Part shown: piece after piece, positions 2,923 to 63,119 of the stretch
Position numbering within the stretch: position 1 is the stretch's first letter
Layout: every line of letters starts with the position of its first letter
Assembly (NCBI GenBank): GCA_963771395.1
Contig: CAVYTY010000023.1
Location: 250,964 to 314,963 of the forward strand
Direction: 5' to 3'
DNA length: 64,000 nucleotides
From: an uncultured Acidobacteriota bacterium
Lineage (GTDB): Bacteria > Acidobacteriota > Vicinamibacteria > Vicinamibacterales > 2-12-FULL-66-21
The notes under the pieces: generated by a model
Told to the model about the DNA's origin: nothing
The model's database searches: none
What the model saw: the letters and a program-made list of their open reading frames with translations, nothing else
Translations under genes and position numbers: made by a program

Positions 2923-3909
2923 TTATCGACCGGGCTTCGGCAGGTCACCGAAATCCGGCATGTACGTCTTGAGACCTTTGGCCGACGTGTTCTTCGAATA
3001 CCCGGCGACGAGTTGTGCGTTGTAGCGGGCTGGAAAAAAATCAAAGGGATCGCTCGGGTCGGCGTCGATGAGTTGCAGGTCGGCGTCACGCATCGTCAGT
3101 TTTCCGAACGTGATGGTGCCGCCGCCGAAGTAGACGTAGTTGCGCGCGGAAGGCGACGGGGGCGTCAGGCGCGCCGGAGGACCCTTGGCCGGGTCGTCGA
3201 ACGTCTGCACCAGCTGGTTCCCCTTGACCACGACGCGCGTCAACCGGCCCAGGATCTCCGGCGGCGGCAGGATCTGGCCGACGGCAAGGACGATGTCGTT
3301 GTCCTGCACGTCCACGCCGCGGCGCTTCTTGAGGTCCACGACATCGTCGAGCTTCAGGCCGAAGAGGGCGAGCAGTCCTTTCGCGGGTACGCCGACTGCC
3401 TTCATCGACTCGACGTGCAGCCGGATCTGACCGTCAGCCGTCGTCGACACGCTGGCGGTCGTGGAAAATGGAATGGTTATCCCCTTGTGCAGCTTGCCGG
3501 TCATTTTCAGACGCTGGCCGTCAGGCTCGACGGTAATGTCTTTCAGCGGTGACCCTTCATAGGCAAAGACGTGGCGGTTCATCAGGTTCTGCAGACTGGT
3601 CATGTCGATCGACATTTCACCGGTCTGCAGGTGCAACACGTAGGACCGTTGATCGTCGAATACAGGCGGTGTGCCTTCTTTCCGGCTGACCATGATGCCC
3701 CGAAGCCGGCTGACGTCGAGCACGATTCCATCGTCCACGTGCAGCCGCACGTTCTTCATCTCGAGCTGAACACCCGCCGGTGCGGAGACGAGTGCGGCCG
3801 CCCCCGAGAGGTGCAGCAGGAGCCCGCAGCAAAGGATGGCGGCCCGCGGCGTCATCCCGGCTACCGGCGCAACCCATGTGCCGCGGCGCATTGACGATTT
3901 GCGAGGCAT
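2923..3909 (-). CDS. secreted hypothetical protein
   Basis: 328-aa ORF with a signal-like segment AAILCCGLLLHLSGAAALVSA. No family recognised. Confidence 0.6.
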   Translation of the reverse strand: MPRKSSMRRGTWVAPVAGMTPRAAILCCGLLLHLSGAAALVSAPAGVQLEMKNVRLHVDDGIVLDVSRLRGIMVSRKEGTPPVFDDQRSYVLHLQTGEMSIDMTSLQNLMNRHVFAYEGSPLKDITVEPDGQRLKMTGKLHKGITIPFSTTASVSTTADGQIRLHVESMKAVGVPAKGLLALFGLKLDDVVDLKKRRGVDVQDNDIVLAVGQILPPPEILGRLTRVVVKGNQLVQTFDDPAKGPPARLTPPSPSARNYVYFGGGTITFGKLTMRDADLQLIDADPSDPFDFFPARYNAQLVAGYSKNTSAKGLKTYMPDFGDLPKPGR

Positions 3910-11103: not shown

Positions 11104-11190
11104 CTCCCCGGACGCCGTGCCGGGTCACCGATACGGCCGCGCCTCGCGGCCGTGACTCAAGACGGTAGCAGATGCGGCTCGAGCGTTCAA

Positions 11191-11510
11191 GATCACGGAT
11201 CTCACGGCCCACGTCATCACCGGACGCGGATTTCGCGGATGACGTTCTCATGGGACGCGGATCTCGCGGATCACACGGATCGCTTCAGGAGCTGGCTGGC
11301 AAACATTGAAGAGGCGTCAGCACAACGACCGGCCGCGCCGCAGGCGCGGTCCAGACGGGCCAGTCTGGCTCCGCCAGGCTGCCGGTCTCTGATCAACACC
11401 GTCCTCCGGAACACCTGACTAATCCGCGAGATCCGCGTCCCGTGAAACGTGATCCGCGAGATCCGCGTCCCGTGAGATCCGTGATCCGCGGCCCGTCAAA
11501 TCGATAGGAT
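11191..11510. repeat. family-B composite B1: left arm (11191-11283) of GGGACGCGGATCTCGCGGATCAC-type units, 137-bp core, and inverted right arm (11421-11510)
   Basis: The left arm contains gggacgcggatctcgcggatcacacggatc. The right arm contains its reverse complement gtgatccgcgagatccgcgtccc twice. About 11 GATC sites. Confidence 0.85.
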
Positions 11511-15785: not shown

Positions 15786-15928
15786 GGTTCAAAGGGTTCA
15801 AGAGGTTCAAAAAAAGGTTCAGGGGGTTCAAAAGGTTCAAGAGGTTCAGGGGGTTCAAAAGGTTCAGGGGTTCAAGGGGTTCAAAGGGTTCAGGAGGTTC
15901 ATGAAGGTTCAGAGGGTTTCGGGGTTCG
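15786..15928. repeat. family-A array A1: 14 GGTTCA + 2 degenerate units, dominant 9-bp period, purine spacers
   Basis: Unit starts read at 15786, 15795, 15804, 15816, 15825, 15834, 15843, 15852, 15861, 15869, 15878, 15887, 15896, 15906, 15915, 15923. Confidence 0.95.
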
Positions 15929-16042
15929 CTGTTTTTGCTATTCGGCCGAAGGCGCGCGTTCGCAGATTCTGAAACGATCCTGGCGGGTCGCCCGATATTC
16001 TGAGCAAATCCGCGCGGCATGCTGCGTGCTCCGCGCTTCTGC

Positions 16043-16438
16043 ATGGTGGCCGCTCGGACATTCGAGGAGCTGGATGCCTGGCAGCTGTCCAGTGAGCTCC
16101 GCGACACGATCTTCACGTTGACTGAAACGGGACCTGTTCTCAAGAACCTCAAGTTCCGCGATCAGATACGGGAGTCGTCGAGCTCGCCGCCCGCAAACCT
16201 GTCGGAAGGGTTCGGCCGTTTCAGGCCGCGCGAGTTCGCGCACTATGCGCGAATCGCGCGCGCGTCACTCCTCGAAACGCGCAACCATCTCTTGGATGGG
16301 CGAACGAAGAAGTACTTGAGCGAGGAAGACACCGCCCGCCTCCTCAAACTTCAGGTGCGAGCGACGATAGCAACAACCAGACTGCTCAGATACCTCGAGT
16401 CCTGCAAAGGCAAGCCGCCCACAGGCTGGACGTACTGA
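16043..16438 (+). CDS. four-helix-bundle protein (23S rRNA intervening-sequence protein family, Avd-like)
   Basis: FEELDAWQLSSELRDTIF...PPANLSEGFGRFRPREFAHYARIARASLLETRNHL fits the PF05635/TIGR02436 pattern. Its TGA stop is the first unit of array A2. Confidence 0.85.
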   Translation: MVAARTFEELDAWQLSSELRDTIFTLTETGPVLKNLKFRDQIRESSSSPPANLSEGFGRFRPREFAHYARIARASLLETRNHLLDGRTKKYLSEEDTARLLKLQVRATIATTRLLRYLESCKGKPPTGWTY

Positions 16439-16582
16439 ACCGCTTGAACCTCTCTGAACCTGCCCTGAACCCCTGAACCCCTGAACCTCCTGAACCTCCT
16501 GAACCCCCTTGAACCTCCTGAACCCCCTGAACCCTCTTGAACCCTCTTGAACCCTCTTGAACCCTCTTGAACCTCCTGAACT
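16436..16582. repeat. family-A array A2: 15 TGAACC + 1 degenerate units, inverted relative to A1, pyrimidine spacers
   Basis: Unit starts read at 16436, 16445, 16455, 16466, 16474, 16482, 16491, 16500, 16510, 16519, 16528, 16538, 16548, 16558, 16568, 16577. The array ends at the TAA of the M28 gene. Confidence 0.95.
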
Positions 16583-18072
16583 TACTTGCGCGGCAGCCGT
16601 TCGTCGCGCATCGAAGCGTTGTAAGCAAAGACGGCGATGACCGTGGCCTGCTGGATCATGTCGTCGGCCTGCACGCGATCGAACGTGTCCATGTTCGAGT
16701 GATGCGTGCGCGAGTTGTATTCGAGCCGGTCGACCATGAACTGAAAGGCGGGCAGGCCGACGGCGTCGAACGAGACGTGATCGGTCGAGGTCACCGAGCG
16801 GGGTCCGATCGCGAACACGCCGAGATCCTCGAGCGGCTCCATCCACTGCCGGAAGATCGGCTCGACGGCGGCGTTGCCCTGCAGCCAGATCCCTCGCACG
16901 CGACCGGTACCGTTGTCGGAGTTGAAGTACGCCGACAGCTTCTCGTGCGCCGGTGTGCGTGTCGTCGTCGCCGGATCGCCGTAGTGTTCGCGGACGTACG
17001 CGCGGGAGCCCAGCAGGCCTTCTTCTTCGCCGCCCCAGAGTCCGATCCTGATCGTCCGCCTCGGCTTCGCGCCCACGGTCGTGAGGATGCGCAGGGCTTC
17101 CATCATCGCAGCCGAGCCCGTGGCGTTGTCGGTTGCGCCCGTGCCTGCCGCCACTGAGTCGAAATGCGCGCCGAGCATCACGATTTCGTCCTTCAGCACC
17201 GGATCGCTCCCGGGCATCTCCGCGATGATGTTGAATCCGTTGTCCGTCGTTTCGTCATGGAACTTCGTCTGCACGTTGAGCTCGACTTTCACGGGCACAC
17301 CCTTGCCGAGGATCCGAACGAGGCGGTTGTAGTGTTCGACTGCGAGCGTCACGGTGGGCAGCCCGGTGCCGGCATCGGGGCCGCGCGATCCGCTGCCGGT
17401 CGGGAAGATCGTGCCGCCGTCGGGCCGCTGCTGACGCCACGACATGTCGCTTCCACCAGCGGACATGTCCGAGTCGCTGCCGCGGTTGAAGAGCGCGACG
17501 ACACCTTCGGCCTTGTAGAAGGCCTGCAGTCTCTGTTGAAAGCTGGCGGCCTCTCCTCGGCTGCTGCCGCGTCCTCCGCGCCCCGCGCCGGCTCCCCGAC
17601 CCGCGGGGACGGTGGCCGCTTCTTCAAAGTCCTTCTCCGTCATGCGTAGGACGAACGGCCCTTCGAGCATTCGCACCTCGCGCGCCGGCTGTGTGAGGAC
17701 GATCTTGCCTTTGAGCGTGCCGCGGTACTTTTGAAAGTCCGCGTCGTTTTCGATCTGCACGCGGGCGACGTCGGCAACGACGACGCCGTTCGTGCCCGAG
17801 GTCCATGAACCTGGAAAGCCGATGAGCGGCTCGATTTGCGGTTCGACGAGATGCGCGCTGAACCGCACGAGCGACCAGCCTTTGCCAAACGGAAATGTCT
17901 CGAGGTGGGGATTTGCGAGGCCCCACTCGGCAAACTTCTCGAGCGTCCAGTTGGCGGCCTGTCTGATGCCCGGGCCGCCAGTCAGCCGCGGCCCGTAGAC
18001 GTCGCTCAGCCAGCTGATGTGATCCATGACCCGGGATCGCTTCAGTCCCTCGTCGCGGATCTTCGCGATCAT
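16582..18072 (-). CDS. M28-family aminopeptidase
   Basis: 496-aa ORF with GAHFDSVAAGTGATDNATGSAAMMEALR and GLWGGEEEGLLGSRAY metal-ligand regions. The candidate signal peptide lies upstream in other frames (see findings). Confidence 0.85.
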   Translation of the reverse strand: MIAKIRDEGLKRSRVMDHISWLSDVYGPRLTGGPGIRQAANWTLEKFAEWGLANPHLETFPFGKGWSLVRFSAHLVEPQIEPLIGFPGSWTSGTNGVVVADVARVQIENDADFQKYRGTLKGKIVLTQPAREVRMLEGPFVLRMTEKDFEEAATVPAGRGAGAGRGGRGSSRGEAASFQQRLQAFYKAEGVVALFNRGSDSDMSAGGSDMSWRQQRPDGGTIFPTGSGSRGPDAGTGLPTVTLAVEHYNRLVRILGKGVPVKVELNVQTKFHDETTDNGFNIIAEMPGSDPVLKDEIVMLGAHFDSVAAGTGATDNATGSAAMMEALRILTTVGAKPRRTIRIGLWGGEEEGLLGSRAYVREHYGDPATTTRTPAHEKLSAYFNSDNGTGRVRGIWLQGNAAVEPIFRQWMEPLEDLGVFAIGPRSVTSTDHVSFDAVGLPAFQFMVDRLEYNSRTHHSNMDTFDRVQADDMIQQATVIAVFAYNASMRDERLPRK

Positions 18073-18243
18073 CGAGAGGTCGAGCTTTTCGGCAATGGGG
18101 CTGGGCGCGTGGGATGGCGATCACCCCGAGCATCAGACAGACACACGACAGACAGACGCTTCATGAGCAGGCTCCAGAGAGAGCTTCCATGCTTAGCAGC
18201 CCGTCGCGTTGACACTCGACTGTGGCTGCGGGTCGGCGTTGCT

Positions 18244-18334
18244 GGGTCATCCATTTTCTAATGCGTGCGCGGAAGCCGCTCACTCGACGAGAAAATCGAG
18301 ATTTGACCCCGGTCAACCGCAGTTGACGGCCTCG
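18244..18334. repeat. hairpin element F, copy 1 (degenerate stem)
   Basis: gggtcatccattttctaatgcgtgcgcggaagccgctcactcgacgagaaaatcgagatttgaccccggtcaaccgcagttgacggcctcgc aligns along its length with 22558-22654. Confidence 0.8.
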
Positions 18335-18422
18335 CGGCTTCATCAAGCTGCCCTCTATACCAGGTGTCAGCAAATGCTCGGGGATGCGCTATCGTAAGGG
18401 AGGTTCGCGAACCGCCCTACCC

Positions 18423-19535
18423 ATGTCCATGATGCACCCCATTTTGAGCGCGGCGCTCCTGCTGTTGCTCTCCCAGACGCCAAAGCCTGCGGTCCCGTTT
18501 ACGACGCCGTTGACGAAGGCCGAGATGGCCGGGAAACAGGCCGTCGTGGCAACCAGCGCCGGCACGTTCGTCATCGACCTGCGGCCGGAACTCGCCCCCA
18601 ATCACGTCGGTTACTTCATCAAGCTGGCGAAGGAGGGCATCTACGACGGCACGACCTTCCATCGTGTCGTGCGTCTCGGCATCATTCAAGGCGGAGATCC
18701 TCTGTCGAAGGACCCGGCGAAGATCAAGCTGTACGGCACGGGCGGGCTGGGCATCCTCAAGGCCGAAATCAGCAGCGAGAAGCACACGAGGGGTGTGGTA
18801 TCGGCCGTCCTCCAGCCCGGCCGGCCCGATAGCGCGGGGTCGCAGTTCTTTGTCGCGGTGACCGATCAGCCGGCGCTCGACGGCAAGTACACGATCTTCG
18901 GACGCGTGTCCGAGGGGCTCGACGTCGTGCAGAAGATTTCCGAAGTTGCCGCTGACGAGAGAGGCGCACCGGCCGAGCGCGTCGAGATGCGCAGCGTGAC
19001 CATCCGCGATACGCCGCCGCCGGAACCAGAGCCGTTCGCGACCGAGTCGTCCGCGGACCTCGCGAAGTATCGGGCGGCCCTCGAGACGTCCGCCGGCTCG
19101 ATCACAGTCGAGCTCCTTCCCGACAAGGCACCCGAGCACGTGCGCAACTTCCTGCGGCTGGCCTCGGCCGGAGTCTTCGACGGCACGGCCTTTCACCGTG
19201 TCGCCCGGGGATTCGTGATCCAGACCGGCGCGCTGACGTCGCGTGGCCCGTTGACCGAGAAGCAGCAGAAGTTGGTTCGGTCGCTGCAACCGGAGTTCAA
19301 CGACACCAGGCACGTGAAGGGCATCCTCTCCATGGCCCGCGGCGACGACCCGGCGAGCGCATCCACGTCGTTCTTCATCGTCACTGGTGATGCGCCGTCG
19401 CTTGATGGTAAGTACACTGTGTTTGGCCGCGTGGTCGAGGGGATGGCCGTCGTCGAGGCCATCGAGCAGTCGGCGGTCAGCGGCGAGGCACCCGTCCAGC
19501 GCGTCGACCTGAAGTCCGTTCGCGTCCTCAAATAG
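18423..19535 (+). CDS. secreted tandem cyclophilin-type peptidyl-prolyl isomerase
   Basis: Two cyclophilin domains (FHRVVRLGIIQGGDP...GSQFFV and FHRVARGFVIQTG...STSFFIV) after a hydrophobic signal segment. Confidence 0.9.
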   Translation: MSMMHPILSAALLLLLSQTPKPAVPFTTPLTKAEMAGKQAVVATSAGTFVIDLRPELAPNHVGYFIKLAKEGIYDGTTFHRVVRLGIIQGGDPLSKDPAKIKLYGTGGLGILKAEISSEKHTRGVVSAVLQPGRPDSAGSQFFVAVTDQPALDGKYTIFGRVSEGLDVVQKISEVAADERGAPAERVEMRSVTIRDTPPPEPEPFATESSADLAKYRAALETSAGSITVELLPDKAPEHVRNFLRLASAGVFDGTAFHRVARGFVIQTGALTSRGPLTEKQQKLVRSLQPEFNDTRHVKGILSMARGDDPASASTSFFIVTGDAPSLDGKYTVFGRVVEGMAVVEAIEQSAVSGEAPVQRVDLKSVRVLK

Positions 19536-20838: not shown

Positions 20839-20846
20839 CCATCAGC

Positions 20847-20928
20847 GGGGACACTCAACCGGGACAGTCCCCGGGGACACTCAACCGGGACAGTCCCCAG
20901 GGACACTCAAGGTTGAGTGTCCCCGGGG
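20847..20928. repeat. family-C array C1: 2 x GGGGACACTCAACCGGGACAGTCCCC plus a palindromic variant GGGACACTCAAGGTTGAGTGTCCC
   Basis: Units at 20847-20872, 20873-20898 and 20899-20928. Inner palindromes GGGACAGTCCC and CCCCGGGG. Confidence 0.9.
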
Positions 20929-20997
20929 TGATTCGAGCCATAATGGAGGCGTGGCTTGGTGCCATTCGGAATTAAAGAAGGGTAAACGGGAAGGGTT

Positions 20998-22539
20998 TTG
21001 GCAGACACACGACTGAAGATTGCGGTTTTCATCGACTTCGACAACATTGAAATCGGGGTCAAGAGCACGCTCGGCGTGCAGTTCGATATCGGGGTCGTCC
21101 TCGAAGCACTGAAGGAACGGGGCGACGTCGTTTCCAAGATCGCCTATGGCGACTGGACACGCGCCGGGGACTACAGCCGATCGCTGACGCAGCACGCGAC
21201 CAAGCTGGTGCAGCGCAACCTCACCCCGGGCGGCGACAAGAACGGCGCCGACATCAATCTGGCGCTCGACGCCCTCGAGATGGCGTTCACCCACGGCCAC
21301 ATCAACGCCTACGTCATCGTCGGCGGCGACAGCGATTTCATCAGCCTCGTCGAGAAGCTCAAACAGTACGACAAGCAGATCTTCGTGGTTGGCGGGCGGG
21401 CGTTCACCAGCCTGGTGATGCAGCGCAACTGCCACGAATTCATCGCCTACGAGAACCTCGTCAGCTCACGCCGTACCCAGGACCGCGGGCAGAAGAGCGC
21501 GCCGGCGACGACACAGCAGGCGCCGCTCGATCAGGTGGTGCCGCTCGTGCGCCGCGCGCTCAAGGTGCTGGTCGATCGCGAGGTTACGCCGCAGCTCGGC
21601 CTGCTCAAGAGTACGCTCCTGCAGCTCGATTCCACGTTCTCCGAGCGTACGTATGGCGCGGGCAGCTTCCGTGATTTCGCGCAGAAGCTTGCCGCGGCGG
21701 GGCACGTCGTATTGCGCGAGGCCGGCCGCAACGTCCTCGTGGAGCTCAGCGACAATGCGCTCGTGACCTCCGCCGTCCCTTCGACCGGGTCTGCGCAGGC
21801 GTCTTCGACGAGCCCCTCGACAAGCTCGGGTCAGAGCAGCGAGGAGCCATGGTCGCGGCAGCAGCAAACAGCGCCGCCGTCACCCGAGCCGTTGACGCGC
21901 GAGACGGCGCCCGTCAACGGGAGCGGTCGCGCCGCTGATGGCATCCGCGAGATCCGCCGCCTGTTTCAGACGGCGCAGCGGCCGCCGCGCTGGCCGATGT
22001 ACATCCGACAGTTGAAGCAGTACCTCCGCGCGGTCGACGCGGCGTTCGATGAGCGCAAGTACGGGTTCGAGACGCTCGGTGATCTCATGCGGGCGTGTCA
22101 GCGCGACGGGCTGCTGCGAATCGAGCGCGATCGTCAGGGCGGGATGCGGATCTTCCCAGGCACGTTGACGGCGCCTGCCGGCGATCCGGCGCCCATGCTC
22201 GACGAAGGTGACGCGCAGGAAGCTGGCGGCTGGGTCCCACCTGTCGATACGTCGAGCGAGCCCGAGGTCATCGAAGGAGACGTCCTGCATGAGATCGACG
22301 TGCCGCAGGTCATCGACGCCGAGGTGACGACGCCGCCGCCCCCAGAGAAACCGTCGCGCCGCCGTCCACGCGCGGCGAAGACCGTTCGACCGACCGGCGA
22401 GGGGCGCGCGCCACGGAAGTCGCCCGACGCACCCGCGGCGCGGAAGGCCGCCGACGGAGCCCCGAAAACGCGAAAGCCGGCCGCCCCGAGGCCGCGTTCC
22501 GCCCGCAGCCGCCCGCGCACCGACGTCCCCCAGGGTTAG
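20998..22539 (+). CDS. NYN (LabA-like) domain protein with two OST-HTH/LOTUS-like domains and a Pro/Ala/Arg-rich tail
   Basis: KIAVFIDFDN...GADINLALDALEMAF...YVIVGGDSDFISLVEKLKQYDKQIFVVG is the NYN core. Two later segments (GLLKSTLLQLDSTFSERTYGAGSFRDF and IRQLKQYLRAVDAAFDERKYGFETLGDL) look like OST-HTH. TTG start. Confidence 0.8.
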   Translation: MADTRLKIAVFIDFDNIEIGVKSTLGVQFDIGVVLEALKERGDVVSKIAYGDWTRAGDYSRSLTQHATKLVQRNLTPGGDKNGADINLALDALEMAFTHGHINAYVIVGGDSDFISLVEKLKQYDKQIFVVGGRAFTSLVMQRNCHEFIAYENLVSSRRTQDRGQKSAPATTQQAPLDQVVPLVRRALKVLVDREVTPQLGLLKSTLLQLDSTFSERTYGAGSFRDFAQKLAAAGHVVLREAGRNVLVELSDNALVTSAVPSTGSAQASSTSPSTSSGQSSEEPWSRQQQTAPPSPEPLTRETAPVNGSGRAADGIREIRRLFQTAQRPPRWPMYIRQLKQYLRAVDAAFDERKYGFETLGDLMRACQRDGLLRIERDRQGGMRIFPGTLTAPAGDPAPMLDEGDAQEAGGWVPPVDTSSEPEVIEGDVLHEIDVPQVIDAEVTTPPPPEKPSRRRPRAAKTVRPTGEGRAPRKSPDAPAARKAADGAPKTRKPAAPRPRSARSRPRTDVPQG

Positions 22540-22557
22540 TCAGTTCGGCGTTTGCCT

Positions 22558-22654
22558 GGGGTCAGATCTCGATTTTCTAATGCGTGAGCGGAAGCCGCTC
22601 ACGCGATTAGAAAATCGAGATCTGACCCCGGACAACTGCAGTTGACGGCCTCGC
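22558..22654. repeat. hairpin element F, copy 2: about 34-bp stem with one bulge, 3-nt loop, conserved tail
   Basis: ggggtcagatctcgattttctaatgcgtgagcgg aag ccgctcacgcgattagaaaatcgagatctgacccc, then ggacaactgcagttgacggcctcgc. It lies between the convergent NYN and dinB genes. Confidence 0.9.
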
Positions 22655-22712
22655 AAGGGTCGACACACCCGCCAATCGGATTTTGCGCTCGGCGAGGCTC
22701 GAGCGCTCAGCC

Positions 22713-23765
22713 TCAGACGTCATTGGCAAAGGGGAGCGCCGTGCCGGCCAGCGGGTCGCTCGGATCGATCAGGTTGTGCACGCTGACGCCGAGCAGACGA
22801 ACGGGTCGTTGGCCGGCCTCGGTGCGATCGAGCAGCGCGCAGGCCCGAGCGGCGAGCGCGTCAGGGTTGCGCGTGGCCGGCAGTTGACTGTGGCTGCGCG
22901 TGATCGTCGTGAAGTCGGAATACCGCACTTTGATCGTCACCGTCCGGCAGACGAGCGTTCGTCGTTCCAGCCAGGCGGCGCTGTCACGCGCCATCTCGTC
23001 GATTGCTGATCGGATCGCAGTGAGGCTGGTGAGGTCCTGCGAGAACGTGTTCTCGCTCCCGCAGGATTTCGCGGCGCGGTCGGGCACCACCGGGCGATCG
23101 TCGACGCCCTGGGCGAGCTGCCGCAGCCATTCCGCCTGGCTGCCGACCGCTTCGCGCAGCGCGGCCTCGCCGGCGGCGCGCACGTCGACCAGTCGCTCGA
23201 TGCCGCGTTCGCGCAGTCGTCTGGCCGTCACCGGTCCGACACCCCACAACGCGTCGACTGGCAGTTGCTGAAGAAAATGCTCGACACGTTCCGGAGCGAT
23301 GACGGTCAGGCCGTCGGGTTTCTTCCACGCCGAGGCGATCTTGGCGAGGAACTTGTTTGGTGCGACACCCGCCGACGCGGTGAGTCCGGTTGCCTCGCGG
23401 ATTTGCGCTTTGAGCCGCTGCGCGACCACGCGGCCAAACGCTTCGCCCCACGCGTTCTCGGTCACGTCCAGGTACGCTTCGTCGAGCGAGAGCGGTTCGA
23501 CAAGGGGCGTTACCGCGCGAAACAACTGGAACACGGCGCGAGACGCGTCTTTGTATCGCGCGAAGTCGGGCCGGATGATGGCGAGCGACGGGCACAGCCT
23601 GACGGCGCGAGCCATCGGTATAGCCGAGCGCACGCCAAAGGCGCGCGCCTCGTAGCTCGCGGCGGCGACGACGCCCCGCTCGGCTGGATCACCACCGACC
23701 GCAACCGGCTTGCCGCGCAGCGAGGGGTTGTCGCGCTGCTCCACGGACGCGTAGAACGCGTCCAT
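22713..23765 (-). CDS. dinB: DNA polymerase IV (Y-family)
   Basis: DMDAFYASVEQRDNP, SLDEAYLDVT and the full Y-family layout. The conserved residues RRILHID are encoded upstream of the first ATG with no canonical start (see findings). Confidence 0.88.
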   Translation of the reverse strand: MDAFYASVEQRDNPSLRGKPVAVGGDPAERGVVAAASYEARAFGVRSAIPMARAVRLCPSLAIIRPDFARYKDASRAVFQLFRAVTPLVEPLSLDEAYLDVTENAWGEAFGRVVAQRLKAQIREATGLTASAGVAPNKFLAKIASAWKKPDGLTVIAPERVEHFLQQLPVDALWGVGPVTARRLRERGIERLVDVRAAGEAALREAVGSQAEWLRQLAQGVDDRPVVPDRAAKSCGSENTFSQDLTSLTAIRSAIDEMARDSAAWLERRTLVCRTVTIKVRYSDFTTITRSHSQLPATRNPDALAARACALLDRTEAGQRPVRLLGVSVHNLIDPSDPLAGTALPFANDV

Positions 23766-31391: not shown

Positions 31392-31613
31392 ACACGGATC
31401 GCAGCGATTCACGGATCAATGGACGCGGATCACTCGGGTCACAGATCGACGGGACGCGGATCACACGGATCAACAGATCAACGGGACGCGGATCACGCGG
31501 ATCAACAGATCAACGGGGACGCGGATCACACGGATCGACAGATCAACGGGACCGCGGCTCACGCGGATCACAGATCGACGGGTCGCGGCTCACGCGGATC
31601 GCAATCGCGAGCA
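31392..31613. repeat. family-B array B2: six direct about 32-bp units (GGGACGCGGATCACNCGGATCAACAGATCAAC) plus degenerate lead-in
   Basis: Unit starts at about 31421, 31453, 31485, 31518, 31550, 31582. About 16 GATC sites in about 220 bp. Confidence 0.9.
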
Positions 31614-49966: not shown

Positions 49967-50072
49967 TGGACGCGGATCGTCTCAACGGGACGCGGATCTC
50001 GGAGACATATTTCAACGGGACGCGGATCTCGCGGATCGACATTCTCACGTGACGCGGATCTCGCGGATCACA
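49967..50072. repeat. family-B array B3: four direct GACGCGGATC(TCGCGGATC) units
   Basis: Unit starts at about 49969, 49989, 50019, 50051. About 7 GATC sites. It fills the gap between two convergent stops. Confidence 0.85.
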
Positions 50073-51436
50073 TCATGCCGCCTCCCGGGCTTTTCGGTAG
50101 CGTCGGCGTCGTCTGGGGGGCCGCCGGCGGCTTGAGCGTGTAGCGATACGCCTCGATGAGCCATGCGCCGGTGCGCTTCAGCACGAGCGTGACCTGCCCC
50201 TCCATCCTGGGCGTTGGTTTTCCGGACGAATCCAGAACACCGCTCAGTTCCCACTTCCCGTCGGCAACAGCGATGTCCTCTGAGAGACAGCGGATCCTGT
50301 TCAGGGCGAGCGGATGCTGCGACGAGCGGTACTCACGCCGTCTGAAGAGCTGCATGCGGTTGATGGTGATCATCTGCGCGCCCCGTTCGATTGCGCCGTC
50401 CGGGTGGATGATGTCCCCGCCCTTCGACCACAGCGCGCCGAGTTTCTCATAGTCGTGATTGGCCCAGTGGACATAGAACCGCTGCCGAGCGCCGCGATCG
50501 CCCGTTCGTCGCCGGCCGAGCATCGTTCCAGAGGGTCTGGCGCAGCGGCTGCTGAAGTTGTCGCCTCGACGCGTGGCGGTTCCGCCACGGGCGGTGGCGT
50601 GCTCGATCGCGTCGGCAGCGGCGCAGTTCTCAGGGCGGCGATATCCTGCAGGATGCCGCTCGACGAGCGCTTCGACGAACACCCGTCCCTTCTCTCGCGT
50701 CGCGCGCGTCGGATCGCCCCAGGTGCCAGTCGGCGAGTAGGTGCCCGTGCCGCCGCGCTGCCGGGTGAGTCGGCCCCCGCCAGGCGAGGGGGTGTAGTCC
50801 TTGACGGCCTTTCGTCATGTCGACGCTCGACGGATCGATGTAGAGCATCATCGAGGTCTCGACCTCGTCGGCATGCGTCCCGCCTTCCTGCTCGATGAAA
50901 CCCTTGGTCGCAGGATCGAGCCGGCTGCCGAGGTTGGTGTAGCGCATCAGCACGCCATCGGACGCGAGGAGAGCCACCGCGGGGTCGAGGGCGCGTACTG
51001 TCGAGACTCCAGTGTTGAGGACATAGAAACGGCGAGGGCCGTACGCCGACAGCGTCCGGACGACATCGGCGGTCATGTCCCTGGCGGTGGCAAGCGACAG
51101 CGACGTGGAGCCGGGATACTCGAGGAACGCCGGATAGAAGTGATAGGTCAGCGTGGGTGCGACGACAACGGCGGTCGCGTCGACCACGCGCTGTGTCAGA
51201 TAATCGGCGAGCGTCAGATCGTTGCGCAGCTTCAGATGCGGTCCGTGCTCCTTGCTGCCCGCGCCGAGCGGGATGAGGACAACCGTCTCTGGCGTGAGCG
51301 CCGGCTCGGCCTCCTGCCACGTCAGCGATTCGAGCCGCACACTCTTTTCGAGCGGGGCCGGACTGCGGCTCTGACGAGCGGAGGGCGTCGTGGAGAGCCC
51401 CAGGACACAAACAAGCGCGAAGATCTGCAGGCGCAT
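50068..51436 (-). pseudogene. creatininase-family domain fused via a Pro/Ala linker to a SnoaL/DUF4440-like domain; three frame changes (about 50807, 50655, 50480)
   Basis: ...EVETSMMLYIDPSSVDMTK / AVKDYTPSPGGGRLTRQRGGTGTYSPTGTWGDPTRATREKGRVFVEALVER / ILQDIAALRTAPLP...AGDERAIAALGS / RFYVHWANHDYEKLGALW... Confidence 0.6.
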
Positions 51437-51486: not shown

Positions 51487-51713
51487 GTGCAGAGGGTGCT
51501 AAGGTGCCCGGTGCTTAGGGTGCCGGGGTGCCAAGGTGCCCGGTGCCTGGTGCTTAGGGTGCCACGGTGCAAGGGGCCAGAGTGCCAACGGCGTTGGCGC
51601 GTTGTCCGTGACCTGGCACGCTCCGCACCCCAGCTAGGCACGAGGCACGGGGCACGCTTGCACCCCGGCACCCTAAGCACCAGGCACCGAGGCACCTTGG
51701 CACTTTAGCACCC
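51487..51713. repeat. family-D composite: about 11 GGTGCY units (51487-51573), about 40-bp core, and inverted GGCAC/GCACC units (51613-51713)
   Basis: ggtgctaaggtgcccggtgcttagggtgccggggtgccaaggtgcc... is mirrored by ...ggcaccctaagcaccaggcaccgaggcaccttggcac. Confidence 0.9.
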
Positions 51714-56180: not shown

Positions 56181-56261
56181 ACCCTGAACCCTTGAACCCT
56201 CTGAACCTTTTTGAACCCCTGAACCGTTTGAACCTTTTGAACCCTCTGAACCTTTTGAACC
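56178..56261. repeat. family-A array A4: 10 TGAACC units
   Basis: Unit starts 56178, 56185, 56193, 56202, 56212, 56220, 56229, 56238, 56247, 56256. The first unit contains the stop codon of the preceding gene. Confidence 0.95.
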
Positions 56262-56276
56262 CTGTTTAATCATCCG

Positions 56277-60048: not shown

Positions 60049-60104
60049 TGATTTGGTTCAAGAGGTTCAAGAGGTTCAGGTGGTTCAATAGGTTCAAGGG
60101 TTCT
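60035..60104. repeat. family-A array A6: 6 GGTTCA + 1 degenerate unit spanning an intra-operon spacer
   Basis: Unit starts 60035, 60055, 60064, 60073, 60082, 60091, 60099. The outer units lie inside the flanking coding sequences. Confidence 0.9.
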
Positions 60105-62975: not shown

Positions 62976-63020
62976 ACACGCTCTCCAGAGAGCTTCCGCG
63001 ACCGCGCAATAGCTGAGCTC

Positions 63021-63074
63021 GGGGACACTCAACCGGGACAGTCCCCGGGGACACTCAAGCCGGGACTAGTCCCC
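63021..63074. repeat. family-C array C2: GGGGACACTCAACCGGGACAGTCCCC + GGGGACACTCAAGCCGGGACTAGTCCCC
   Basis: The first unit is identical to the C1 units. The second carries the palindrome GGGACTAGTCCC. Confidence 0.9.
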
Positions 63075-63119
63075 GGACGACTGGTCGACACGCCAAGGAG
63101 AATTGAAGCGGCTTCCGGC

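Follow-up and report, generated by a model that had tools for sequence, protein, structure and literature searches.

Genes resembling those of REP-associated tyrosine transposases (RAYT; REP, repetitive extragenic palindrome) can be flanked by terminal inverted repeats (TIR) and not by REPs, and have been named TIRtrons or TIRYTs (Di Nocera et al. 2013, PMC3733652). Many of these TIRs carry the sequence GGGGWSAS and are also dispersed as singles, dimers or clusters, and a sharply defined acidobacterial TIRYT group was described in the same study. TIRYTs make up subclass 2.1 of the TnpA-Y1 proteins, which are long proteins with a C-terminal helix-turn-helix (HTH) similar to Bac_DnaA_C, HTH_23 or HTH_28 (Quentin et al. 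2018, PMC6006769). Palindromic repeats inside genes are known as well, namely the Rickettsia palindromic elements (RPE) and the REPs of Opitutus terrae (summarised in Di Nocera et al. 2013). Here we analysed a stretch of 64,000 nt from an uncultured member of the Vicinamibacterales (contig CAVYTY010000023.1, positions 250,964 to 314,963; hereafter the window), which contains a long hairpin in one intact copy (copy 2) and one decayed copy (copy 1). We propose that this hairpin is a non-autonomous 'dimer' of a terminal inverted repeat that belongs to a TIRYT/RAYT-type Y1 (HUH) system of Vicinamibacterales, in other words a gene-less, REPIN-like TIRtron, and we assign this reading a probability of about 0.82. 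The papers found mention neither the arm sequence nor Vicinamibacterales as TIRtron hosts, and none of them links Vicinamibacteria to REP-type repeats; the repeat family appears to be undescribed so far.

Copy 2 as a whole consists of a T followed by GGGG...CCCC and occupies 73 nt (22557..22629). From 22558 to 22629 it reads GGGGTCAGATCTCGATTTTCTAATGCGTGAGCGG-AAG-CCGCTCACGCGATTAGAAAATCGAGATCTGACCCC and folds back into a stem of 34 bp, closed by a 3-nt loop and interrupted by a single bulged G in the right arm, so that the near-perfect hairpin described in the original prediction is confirmed by sequence and fold. The region 22540-22670 folds with -81.3 kcal/mol, compared to -39.6 +/- 3.8 kcal/mol in dinucleotide shuffles (z = -10.9). 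The left arm GGGGTCAGATCTCGATTTTC (22558..22577, + strand) equals the family consensus and has the GGGGWSAS start, and the right arm GAAAATCGAGATCTGACCCC (22610..22629, + strand) is its reverse complement. Between them lies a palindromic core with the bulged G, TAATGCGTGAGCGG-AAG-CCGCTCACGCGATTA (22578..22609), which is private to the lineage and occurs elsewhere in copy 1 only. Copy 2 is placed between two convergent genes, a NYN + OST-HTH gene (20998..22539, + strand), whose stop codon is located 17 nt before the inserted T at 22557, and dinB, which encodes an IMS family Y-polymerase (22713..23765, - strand) and has its stop codon 83 nt past copy 2. The gene context had been read correctly, as Pfam gives NYN plus OST-HTH and IMS/dinB at copy 2, and Peptidase_M28 and cyclophilin at copy 1.

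Syntenic loci reached through homologues of the window NYN protein provide the state of this spacer before the insertion. In the close relative L115 (NYN 91% identical) the site is empty: ..GCGTTGCC is directly joined to GGACAACCGCAGTTGAC (also read as ..GCGTTGCC joined to GGACAACCGCAGTTGACCGG.., or over a longer stretch as ...CAGTTCGCGTTGCC joined to GGACAACCGCAGTTGACCGGCCTCGCGGGTCGAC...). The filled site of the window reads ..GCGTTTGCC, then TGGGG..CCCC, then GGACAACTGCAGTTGACGG.., or over a longer stretch ...CAGTTCGGCGTTTGCC, then TGGGGTCAG...CTGACCCC, then GGACAACTGCAGTTGACGGCCTCGCAAGGGTCGAC..., and the DNA missing in L115 is that of copy 2. The 73 nt of copy 2 were inserted precisely into the NYN-dinB spacer, and the target was not duplicated. 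In agreement with the absence of a target duplication at this filled/empty pair, direct flank matches are found at 1-2 nt in only 7 and at 3 nt in only 1 of the 95 non-redundant elements of the family, the flanks of which have Y at position -1 and R at position +1. A further relative, L112 (NYN 95% identical), carries a collapsed remnant, TGGGGTCAGATC joined to GAGATCTGACCCC, at the same point (3117-3141), followed by the same tail. This remnant may reflect either a deletion inside the palindrome, at an ATC microhomology, or a collapse of the short-read assembly.

Since they are present at the empty site of L115, the 'tail' GGACAACTGCAGTTGACGGCCTCGC to the right of copy 2 (22630..22654) and the 12 nt to its left, TCGGCGTTTGCC (22545..22556, kept in both relatives, L112 and L115, and carried over into copy 1), are older spacer DNA and represent target-site flanks outside the element. 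The tail had been regarded as a conserved part of the hairpin element that contains a 12-bp palindrome. Its 25 nt are indeed common to both copies, but the palindrome CAACTGCAGTTG exists in copy 2 only, while copy 1, L112 and L115 read CCGCAG there; it is a private C-to-T change of copy 2. As a conserved module of the element the tail has to be abandoned, being present at the L115 empty site and absent elsewhere in the family. A metagenome scan with arm plus tail (GACCCCGGNCAACNGCAGTTGACGG) gave 0 matches, the tail was not found at the 104 family loci listed, and TTGAC had no positional enrichment at any offset in 242 flanks.

The NYN-dinB spacer (22540-22712 in the window) also varies by a block of genes. 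It holds CHAT-TPR, TPR_16 and ECF sigma factor genes in L113 (7549-11462) and L114 (7612-11871), and in L116 (1534-3506) only TPR and CHAT genes lie between NYN and dinB, while the CHAT-TPR/ECF block is missing in the window, L112, L115 and L117. The presence of the block is independent of the hairpin, and a REP-mediated loss of the block was rejected because L115 and L117, which are without the block, are also without the element.

The arm of copy 2 belongs to a large repeat family. An exact 20-mer scan with GAAAATCGAGATNTGACCCC, using one genome per species, returned at least 104 loci, and those listed come nearly all from Acidobacteriota/Vicinamibacterales (subdivision 6) metagenome-assembled genomes (MAGs), obtained by both long-read and short-read assembly. 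Three MAGs contribute 12-19 blocks of 8 kb each among the matches listed. From the loci listed we extracted 121 arm-core-arm elements of 43-181 nt together with 23 unpaired arms (non-redundant subset: 95 elements, median 63 nt), and clusters of arms were present in L013, L089, L093, L096 and L100. Conservation is restricted to the 20-nt inverted arm GGGGTCAGATCTCGATTTTC, while the cores vary between copies. Arm positions 1-20 are essentially invariant, and in a set of 81 elements pairing or conservation amounts to 94-100% at positions 1-12. For positions 21-26, the frequencies of Watson-Crick pairs between the two arms of one element are 0.84, 0.86, 0.68, 0.58, 0.49 and 0.52, compared to 0.63, 0.36, 0.31, 0.33, 0.31 and 0.32 for arms combined from different elements, and three types of Watson-Crick pair occur per position; past position ~27 pairing is at chance level. 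The typical stem therefore comprises 22-26 bp, and the 34-bp stem of copy 2 is at the long end of the family range. The predicted folds have a median of 27 pairs and a median of -42.5 kcal/mol. At orthologous sites both arms are 100% identical, compared to 75-85% for the flanks and 61-69% for the cores, which suggests that the arms are kept intact at these sites even if the ascertainment by exact match is allowed for. The original prediction had named a lack of further copies, or copies lacking compensatory stem changes, as grounds for giving up the element; more than 100 loci were found, and own arms co-vary at positions 21-26, so both are contradicted.

The core hairpin GCGTG.GCGGAAGCCGCYCAC (GTGAGCGGAAGCCGCTCAC) was also considered as a repeat family of its own and rejected: its 7 metagenome matches are a chance number and none of them is located beside arms. 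A sequence in L087 (7738-7756, GTGAGCGGAAGCCGCCCAC) is one mismatch away from the core hairpin of the window and sits just outside an element. L087 and L099 have a common flank, ..GGGGAAACGGTGGTTGACG.., that loosely resembles the tail in the window.

The family is linked to a transposase gene. A motif search of the family loci revealed four IS200-like open reading frames (ORFs), three of which have elements within 250 nt of the gene ends. The gene of L076 (~1905-2715, frameshifted) lies between elements at 1722-1784 and 2719-2779, that of L079 (1326-2330) lies between elements at 1090-1132 and 2522-2564, and in L051 the 3' end of the gene is overlapped by an element at 1062-1113. The three proteins are 42-56% identical to one another, pass the Pfam Y1_Tnp cut-off with E values of 1e-8 to 1e-11, and have REP-associated tyrosine transposase as their best NCBIfam family. 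Because these first loci had been chosen through the repeat, a repeat-independent test was started from the L079 protein. It has more than 4,000 homologues of ~280-310 aa, many of which their sources annotate as RayT or REP-associated tyrosine transposase. Each of the four distinct gene loci fetched by the protein alone turned out to be flanked by GGGGTCAGATCT.. arms. In L118 (L118/L119) dimers are present 150 nt before the gene and overlapping the 3' end of it, and in L120/L121 they are found 215 nt upstream and 246 nt downstream of the gene. In L122, single inverted arms of the variant GGGGTCAGATCTTGAATCTT (1789-1808 and 2902-2921/2952-2971) bracket the gene at 2001-2885, and in L123 the 3' end of the gene is accompanied by an arm that represents another variant. 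Among these protein-chosen loci the arm variants track the protein lineage. The proteins comprise 293-335 aa with a C-terminal extension of ~150 aa, in which a weak HTH_38 match is detected (Pfam, E 0.0015), and some homologues carry precomputed PF13384 (HTH_23) or PF13936 assignments. Of the options raised in the original prediction, the REP-like element is the right one, since the hairpins are dispersed palindromic repeats tied to a Y1 transposase of RAYT/TIRYT type.

Copy 1 lies 4.3 kb from the NYN-dinB site, inside the 259-nt spacer between the divergent M28 peptidase gene (16582..18164, - strand) and cyclophilin-type peptidyl-prolyl isomerase gene (18424..19535, + strand, start MSMMHP.. 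by homology). The repeat finder (family D10) aligned 18250-18335 with 22569-22654 without gaps over 86 nt at 91% identity, and the 19-20-nt arm and arm-core sub-motifs common to both copies had 0 matches in shuffled sequence. As claimed before, copy 1 aligns with copy 2 while its left arm has diverged, the outer part being decayed to TGGG-TCA--TC-CATTTTC, and its fold is barely above shuffles (z = -1.95). The decayed element (18243..18310) consists of a left-arm relic GGGTCATCCATTTTC (18244-18258), the core (18259-18290) and a right arm with 1 mismatch (18291-18310). It is accompanied by DNA of the donor site on both sides, on the left TCGGCGTTGC (18233..18242, possibly out to ~18226) and on the right the tail GGTCAACCGCAGTTGACGGCCTCGC (18311..18335). 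The donor flanks common to both sites read TCGGCGTT(T)GCC on the left and GGACAAC..GGCCTCGC on the right, and the similarity ends within ~17 nt left and ~28 nt right of the hairpin. The tail of copy 1 has the ancestral CCGCAG state, as in L115 and L112 (..CCGCAGTTGAC). Since the element and both donor flanks are common to the two sites and the tail is ancestral, copy 1 derives secondarily from the filled NYN-dinB site and includes ~10-17 nt of the left and ~26-28 nt of the right donor flank. In L113, L114, L115 and L117 the M28-cyclophilin spacer is without the element, and in L113 and L114 it holds a different palindrome. Comparison with L114 places the true start of the M28 gene near 18164, and its 5' end (17990-18164, - strand) matches the L114 orthologue only if two frameshifts are introduced (MKRLSVVCL / MLGVIAIPRAQP / IAEKLDLSMIAKIRDEGLK). 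This suggests that the window is a long-read MAG assembly with indel errors, and therefore some small gaps or part of the left-arm decay of copy 1 could be assembly errors.

Copy 1 may have originated either by off-site cleavage by the transposase or as a short ectopic conversion patch. That it is nothing but a local segmental duplication or gene-conversion patch of ~120 nt, unrelated to transposition, is possible, and we hold it to be distinctly the less probable course. The donor flanks on both sides of copy 1 (TCGGCGTTGC and the 25-nt tail) and the resemblance of its tail to the ancestral state of L115 and L112 are what such a patch would leave behind. The similarity to the donor stops within ~17 and ~28 nt of the hairpin, which puts the hairpin at the centre of the event; the M28-cyclophilin spacers of the four relatives lack the element, and a patch leaves copy 2 and the whole family unexplained. 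The other alternatives concern the hairpin itself. A role as cis-acting RNA, be it a bidirectional terminator, a 3' mRNA-stabilising hairpin or a small structured RNA gene, is one of them, and the very stable stem (-81 kcal/mol) and the position of copy 2 between convergent genes would suit this, as most REPs are found in this location and effects at the RNA level have been proposed for them (PMC3733652). An effect on NYN/dinB mRNA stability may exist as a by-product. As the identity of the element, an RNA is improbable. Next to the stem, the + strand continues with GGACAACTGC and the - strand with AGGCAAACGC, without a T-run on either, which speaks against a canonical bidirectional terminator, and terminator-like matches are at chance level (4 found vs 3.0 +/- 1.4 expected). 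The remark in the original prediction that termination is not the common denominator of the two copies was sound. The whole window has 0 matches in Rfam 15 at gathering score; only generic miRNA hairpins appear below threshold (E<=1), at least 55 bits short, the best being mir-2574 with 33.8 bits against a threshold of 90. Moreover, the cores vary, the element is missing in the same spacer of the close relative L115, copies occur in divergent spacers and in frame in ORFs, and the linked gene is a transposase and not a class of neighbouring genes. The small structured RNA is not supported, given the lack of an Rfam match at gathering score, the variable cores and the copies in frame inside genes; the hairpin is an ordinary selfish or REP-like element and not a new structured RNA.

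A classical miniature inverted-repeat transposable element (MITE), that is, an internally deleted insertion sequence (IS) of a DDE transposase with terminal inverted repeats, would share the inverted repeats, the short variable interior and the many dispersed copies. We consider this very improbable, since no target-site duplication is found in the 95 non-redundant copies or at the filled/empty pair, and the only gene found bracketed by the arms encodes a Y1 HUH and not a DDE transposase. Least probable of all is a site-specific recombination site (integron attC-like or dif-like) or a palindrome that binds a protein and serves the host. The imperfect palindrome, in which one G is extrahelical, and the arms, which are better conserved than the flanks at orthologous sites, would fit such a site, but integrase or recombinase neighbours, R'/R'' core sites (GTTRRRY) and cassette arrays are lacking, GTTGACG in the flank does not fit GTTRRRY, and the copies are dispersed singly and also reside inside genes.

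Several observations weigh against the assignment to a TIRYT/RAYT-type Y1 system. The three transposases found with the repeat score 64.1, 67.2 and 64.4 bits with the NCBIfam RAYT equivalog NF047646, which is under its cut-off of 80. A motif search detected no transposase gene in the 64-kb window, which bears on the activity of the system in this genome, and a tblastn search of the window with four transposases gave nothing better than E 0.09. The arm does not form a small palindrome of its own and has no GTAG/CGTC tag of classical REPs. The donor flanks in copy 1 are not standard for precise cut-and-paste and could be explained by ectopic gene conversion or patch repair. The loci were chosen by exact arm match, by which the apparent arm conservation is inflated. 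Finally, the literature searched yielded neither a biochemically characterised TIRYT nor other experimental work on TIRYTs, and the single-strand mechanism therefore rests on analogy. By this analogy, which follows the pattern of the IS200/IS605 TnpA and of E. coli TnpA-REP, the element would fold into a hairpin where the DNA is single-stranded, such as on the lagging-strand template. A Y1 enzyme in trans would then recognise it and cut at or near the hairpin foot, and reinsertion would occur without duplication. The precise filled/empty pair, which has no duplication, is indirect evidence that the transposase cuts or moves the repeats. An occasional cut outside the foot would account for the donor flanks in copy 1. 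Effects on the neighbours would be secondary: copy 2 might act as a 3' hairpin that stabilises the NYN and dinB mRNAs, and copy 1 might disrupt the divergent promoter spacer.

About 9% of the sampled elements are located in frame inside conserved genes, to which they add 17-27 residues (GSDLDFL...ENRDLTP, ...RKSRSDP or GVRSRFS...). One such gene encodes a MeaB-like GTPase in L022 (1576-1647), where the PDB homologue 6cum_A aligns on either side of a 25-residue insert and has two residues there; the orthologue in L046 (3251-3322) carries its insert at the same place. Other loci with in-frame copies are L012/L026/L084, L025, L052, L055, L083, L097 and L042. The further host genes encode a TMEM260-like membrane protein, an amino-acid permease, an AMP-binding enzyme, an ABC ATPase, a PSD-domain protein, a class-V aminotransferase and a molybdopterin oxidoreductase, and in the permease, the AMP-binding enzyme, the ABC ATPase and the oxidoreductase Pfam domains span the insert. 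The lengths of the 121 elements are not biased to multiples of three (41/41/39 by length modulo 3); therefore the intragenic copies represent a minority of tolerated accidents and not a design feature. A 65-nt copy in L085 (297-361) shifts the frame between the LSGGE signature and Walker B of an ABC ATPase; taking out 64 nt restores ..AQISGILLLDEP.., and the gene is either disrupted or affected by a 1-nt assembly error.

A more far-reaching view would be that TIRYT and repeat form a long-lived, vertically inherited partnership, in which the transposase re-homogenises or selects its sites and can transduce short adjacent DNA, so that the GGGGTCAG hairpins are more than selfish passengers. This idea is derived from the arms being identical at orthologous sites, even where they are translated inside essential genes such as meaB, and from copy 1 having moved with ~40 nt of donor spacer. 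We regard it as speculative and rather unlikely. If true, the partnership would be a way by which small regulatory or peptide-coding segments are shuffled in Vicinamibacterales.

The window contains further repeats. A 9-nt unit, GGTTCAnnn, forms tandem arrays that are arranged as inverted pairs, the first at 15786-15915 (+) and 16435-16581 (-) and others at 27270-27318/27375-27424, 56184-56263, 58397-58453/58456-58503 and 60055-60103. The first pair brackets a 139-aa ORF (16019-16438) with a PF05635 23S_rRNA_IVP domain (four-helix-bundle, Avd-like; E 1.5e-20), which looks like another repeat-bracketed small gene or mobile unit. A second repeat with a GGGGWSAS-type start, GGGGACACTCAACCGGGACAGTCCCC, is present at 20846-20941 and 63020-63076, with a period of 26 and the hairpin GGGACACTCAA-GG-TTGAGTGTCCC. 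It is placed in the spacer between a BamB-like gene and NYN and again at 63 kb, and possibly belongs to a second TIRYT. Other arrays, with 2-6 copies at a period of 30-32 nt and in both orientations, are found at 11185-11273, 11422-11490, 31409-31600 and 49980-50073; they are built on ..ACGGGACGCGGATCWCGCGGATCA.. and hold the palindrome GATCCGCG/CGCGGATC. At 51493-51696 an 8-nt unit, AGGGTGCC, forms inverted arrays whose 63-nt arms are 84% complementary and lie 76 nt apart.

With this assignment, one candidate for a novel structured RNA is struck off and the hairpin is annotated correctly. An abundant repeat family and its likely transposase are defined for Vicinamibacterales, a dominant but poorly studied soil lineage. 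Such repeats break short-read assemblies, and many of the transposase homologues are on contigs of 1-3 kb. What makes the family noteworthy is its abundance in a major soil lineage, the copy that carries its flanks and the conserved in-frame copies. For the question whether TIRYTs mobilise repeats, the filled/empty pair, the lineage-tracking arm variants and the in-frame copies provide clean material.

Among the known systems, IS200/IS605 elements such as IS608 and ISDra2 are probably alike in chemistry: like them the family has no target-site duplication, by analogy it would share HUH Y1 catalysis and hairpin-dependent recognition, and the cleavage sites of these IS away from the hairpin foot are a precedent for the movement of adjacent bases. 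However, the ends of IS608 are two different subterminal hairpins and not one symmetric inverted repeat, and an IS of this group carries its own tnpA (often also tnpB), while the family described here has no defined target tetranucleotide. Like RPE and the Opitutus terrae REPs, our family consists of palindromic repeats that occur in frame in conserved protein-coding genes, but these are unrelated sequence families from other host phyla, and both copies in the window are intergenic. The REP/REPIN-RAYT system (Nunvar 2010; Bertels and Rainey 2011, PMC3116915) shares with the family the inverted pairs that form a long hairpin, the non-autonomous nature, the many copies and the lack of target duplication. 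In both, the repeats flank a domesticated-looking IS200-like Y1 gene and most copies reside in spacers, often between convergent genes. A classical REP is a 20-40-nt imperfect palindrome with a 5' GTAG or CGTC tag, whereas the arm GGGGTCAGATCTCGATTTTC has no internal stem-loop beyond an AGATCT hexamer, lacks GTAG/CGTC and starts with GGGG. Since these two classical features of REP/REPIN systems fail, the self-complementary GTAG/CGTC unit and the RAYT equivalog score, we file the hairpin as a TIRYT-type repeat that works like a REPIN. Compared to the TIRtrons described, the copy numbers look above those given for the 'moderately abundant' families, detection of the C-terminal HTH is weak, and in-frame intragenic copies as well as a filled/empty site pair are documented here for the class. 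The family also has features of a TIRtron: the arm starts with GGGGTCAG (W=T, S=C, A, S=G) and fits GGGGWSAS (PMC3733652), a Y1 HUH gene encoding proteins of 293-335 aa with a C-terminal extension is bracketed by inverted repeats, and the same TIR is found elsewhere as 121 dimers, 23 unpaired arms and clusters.

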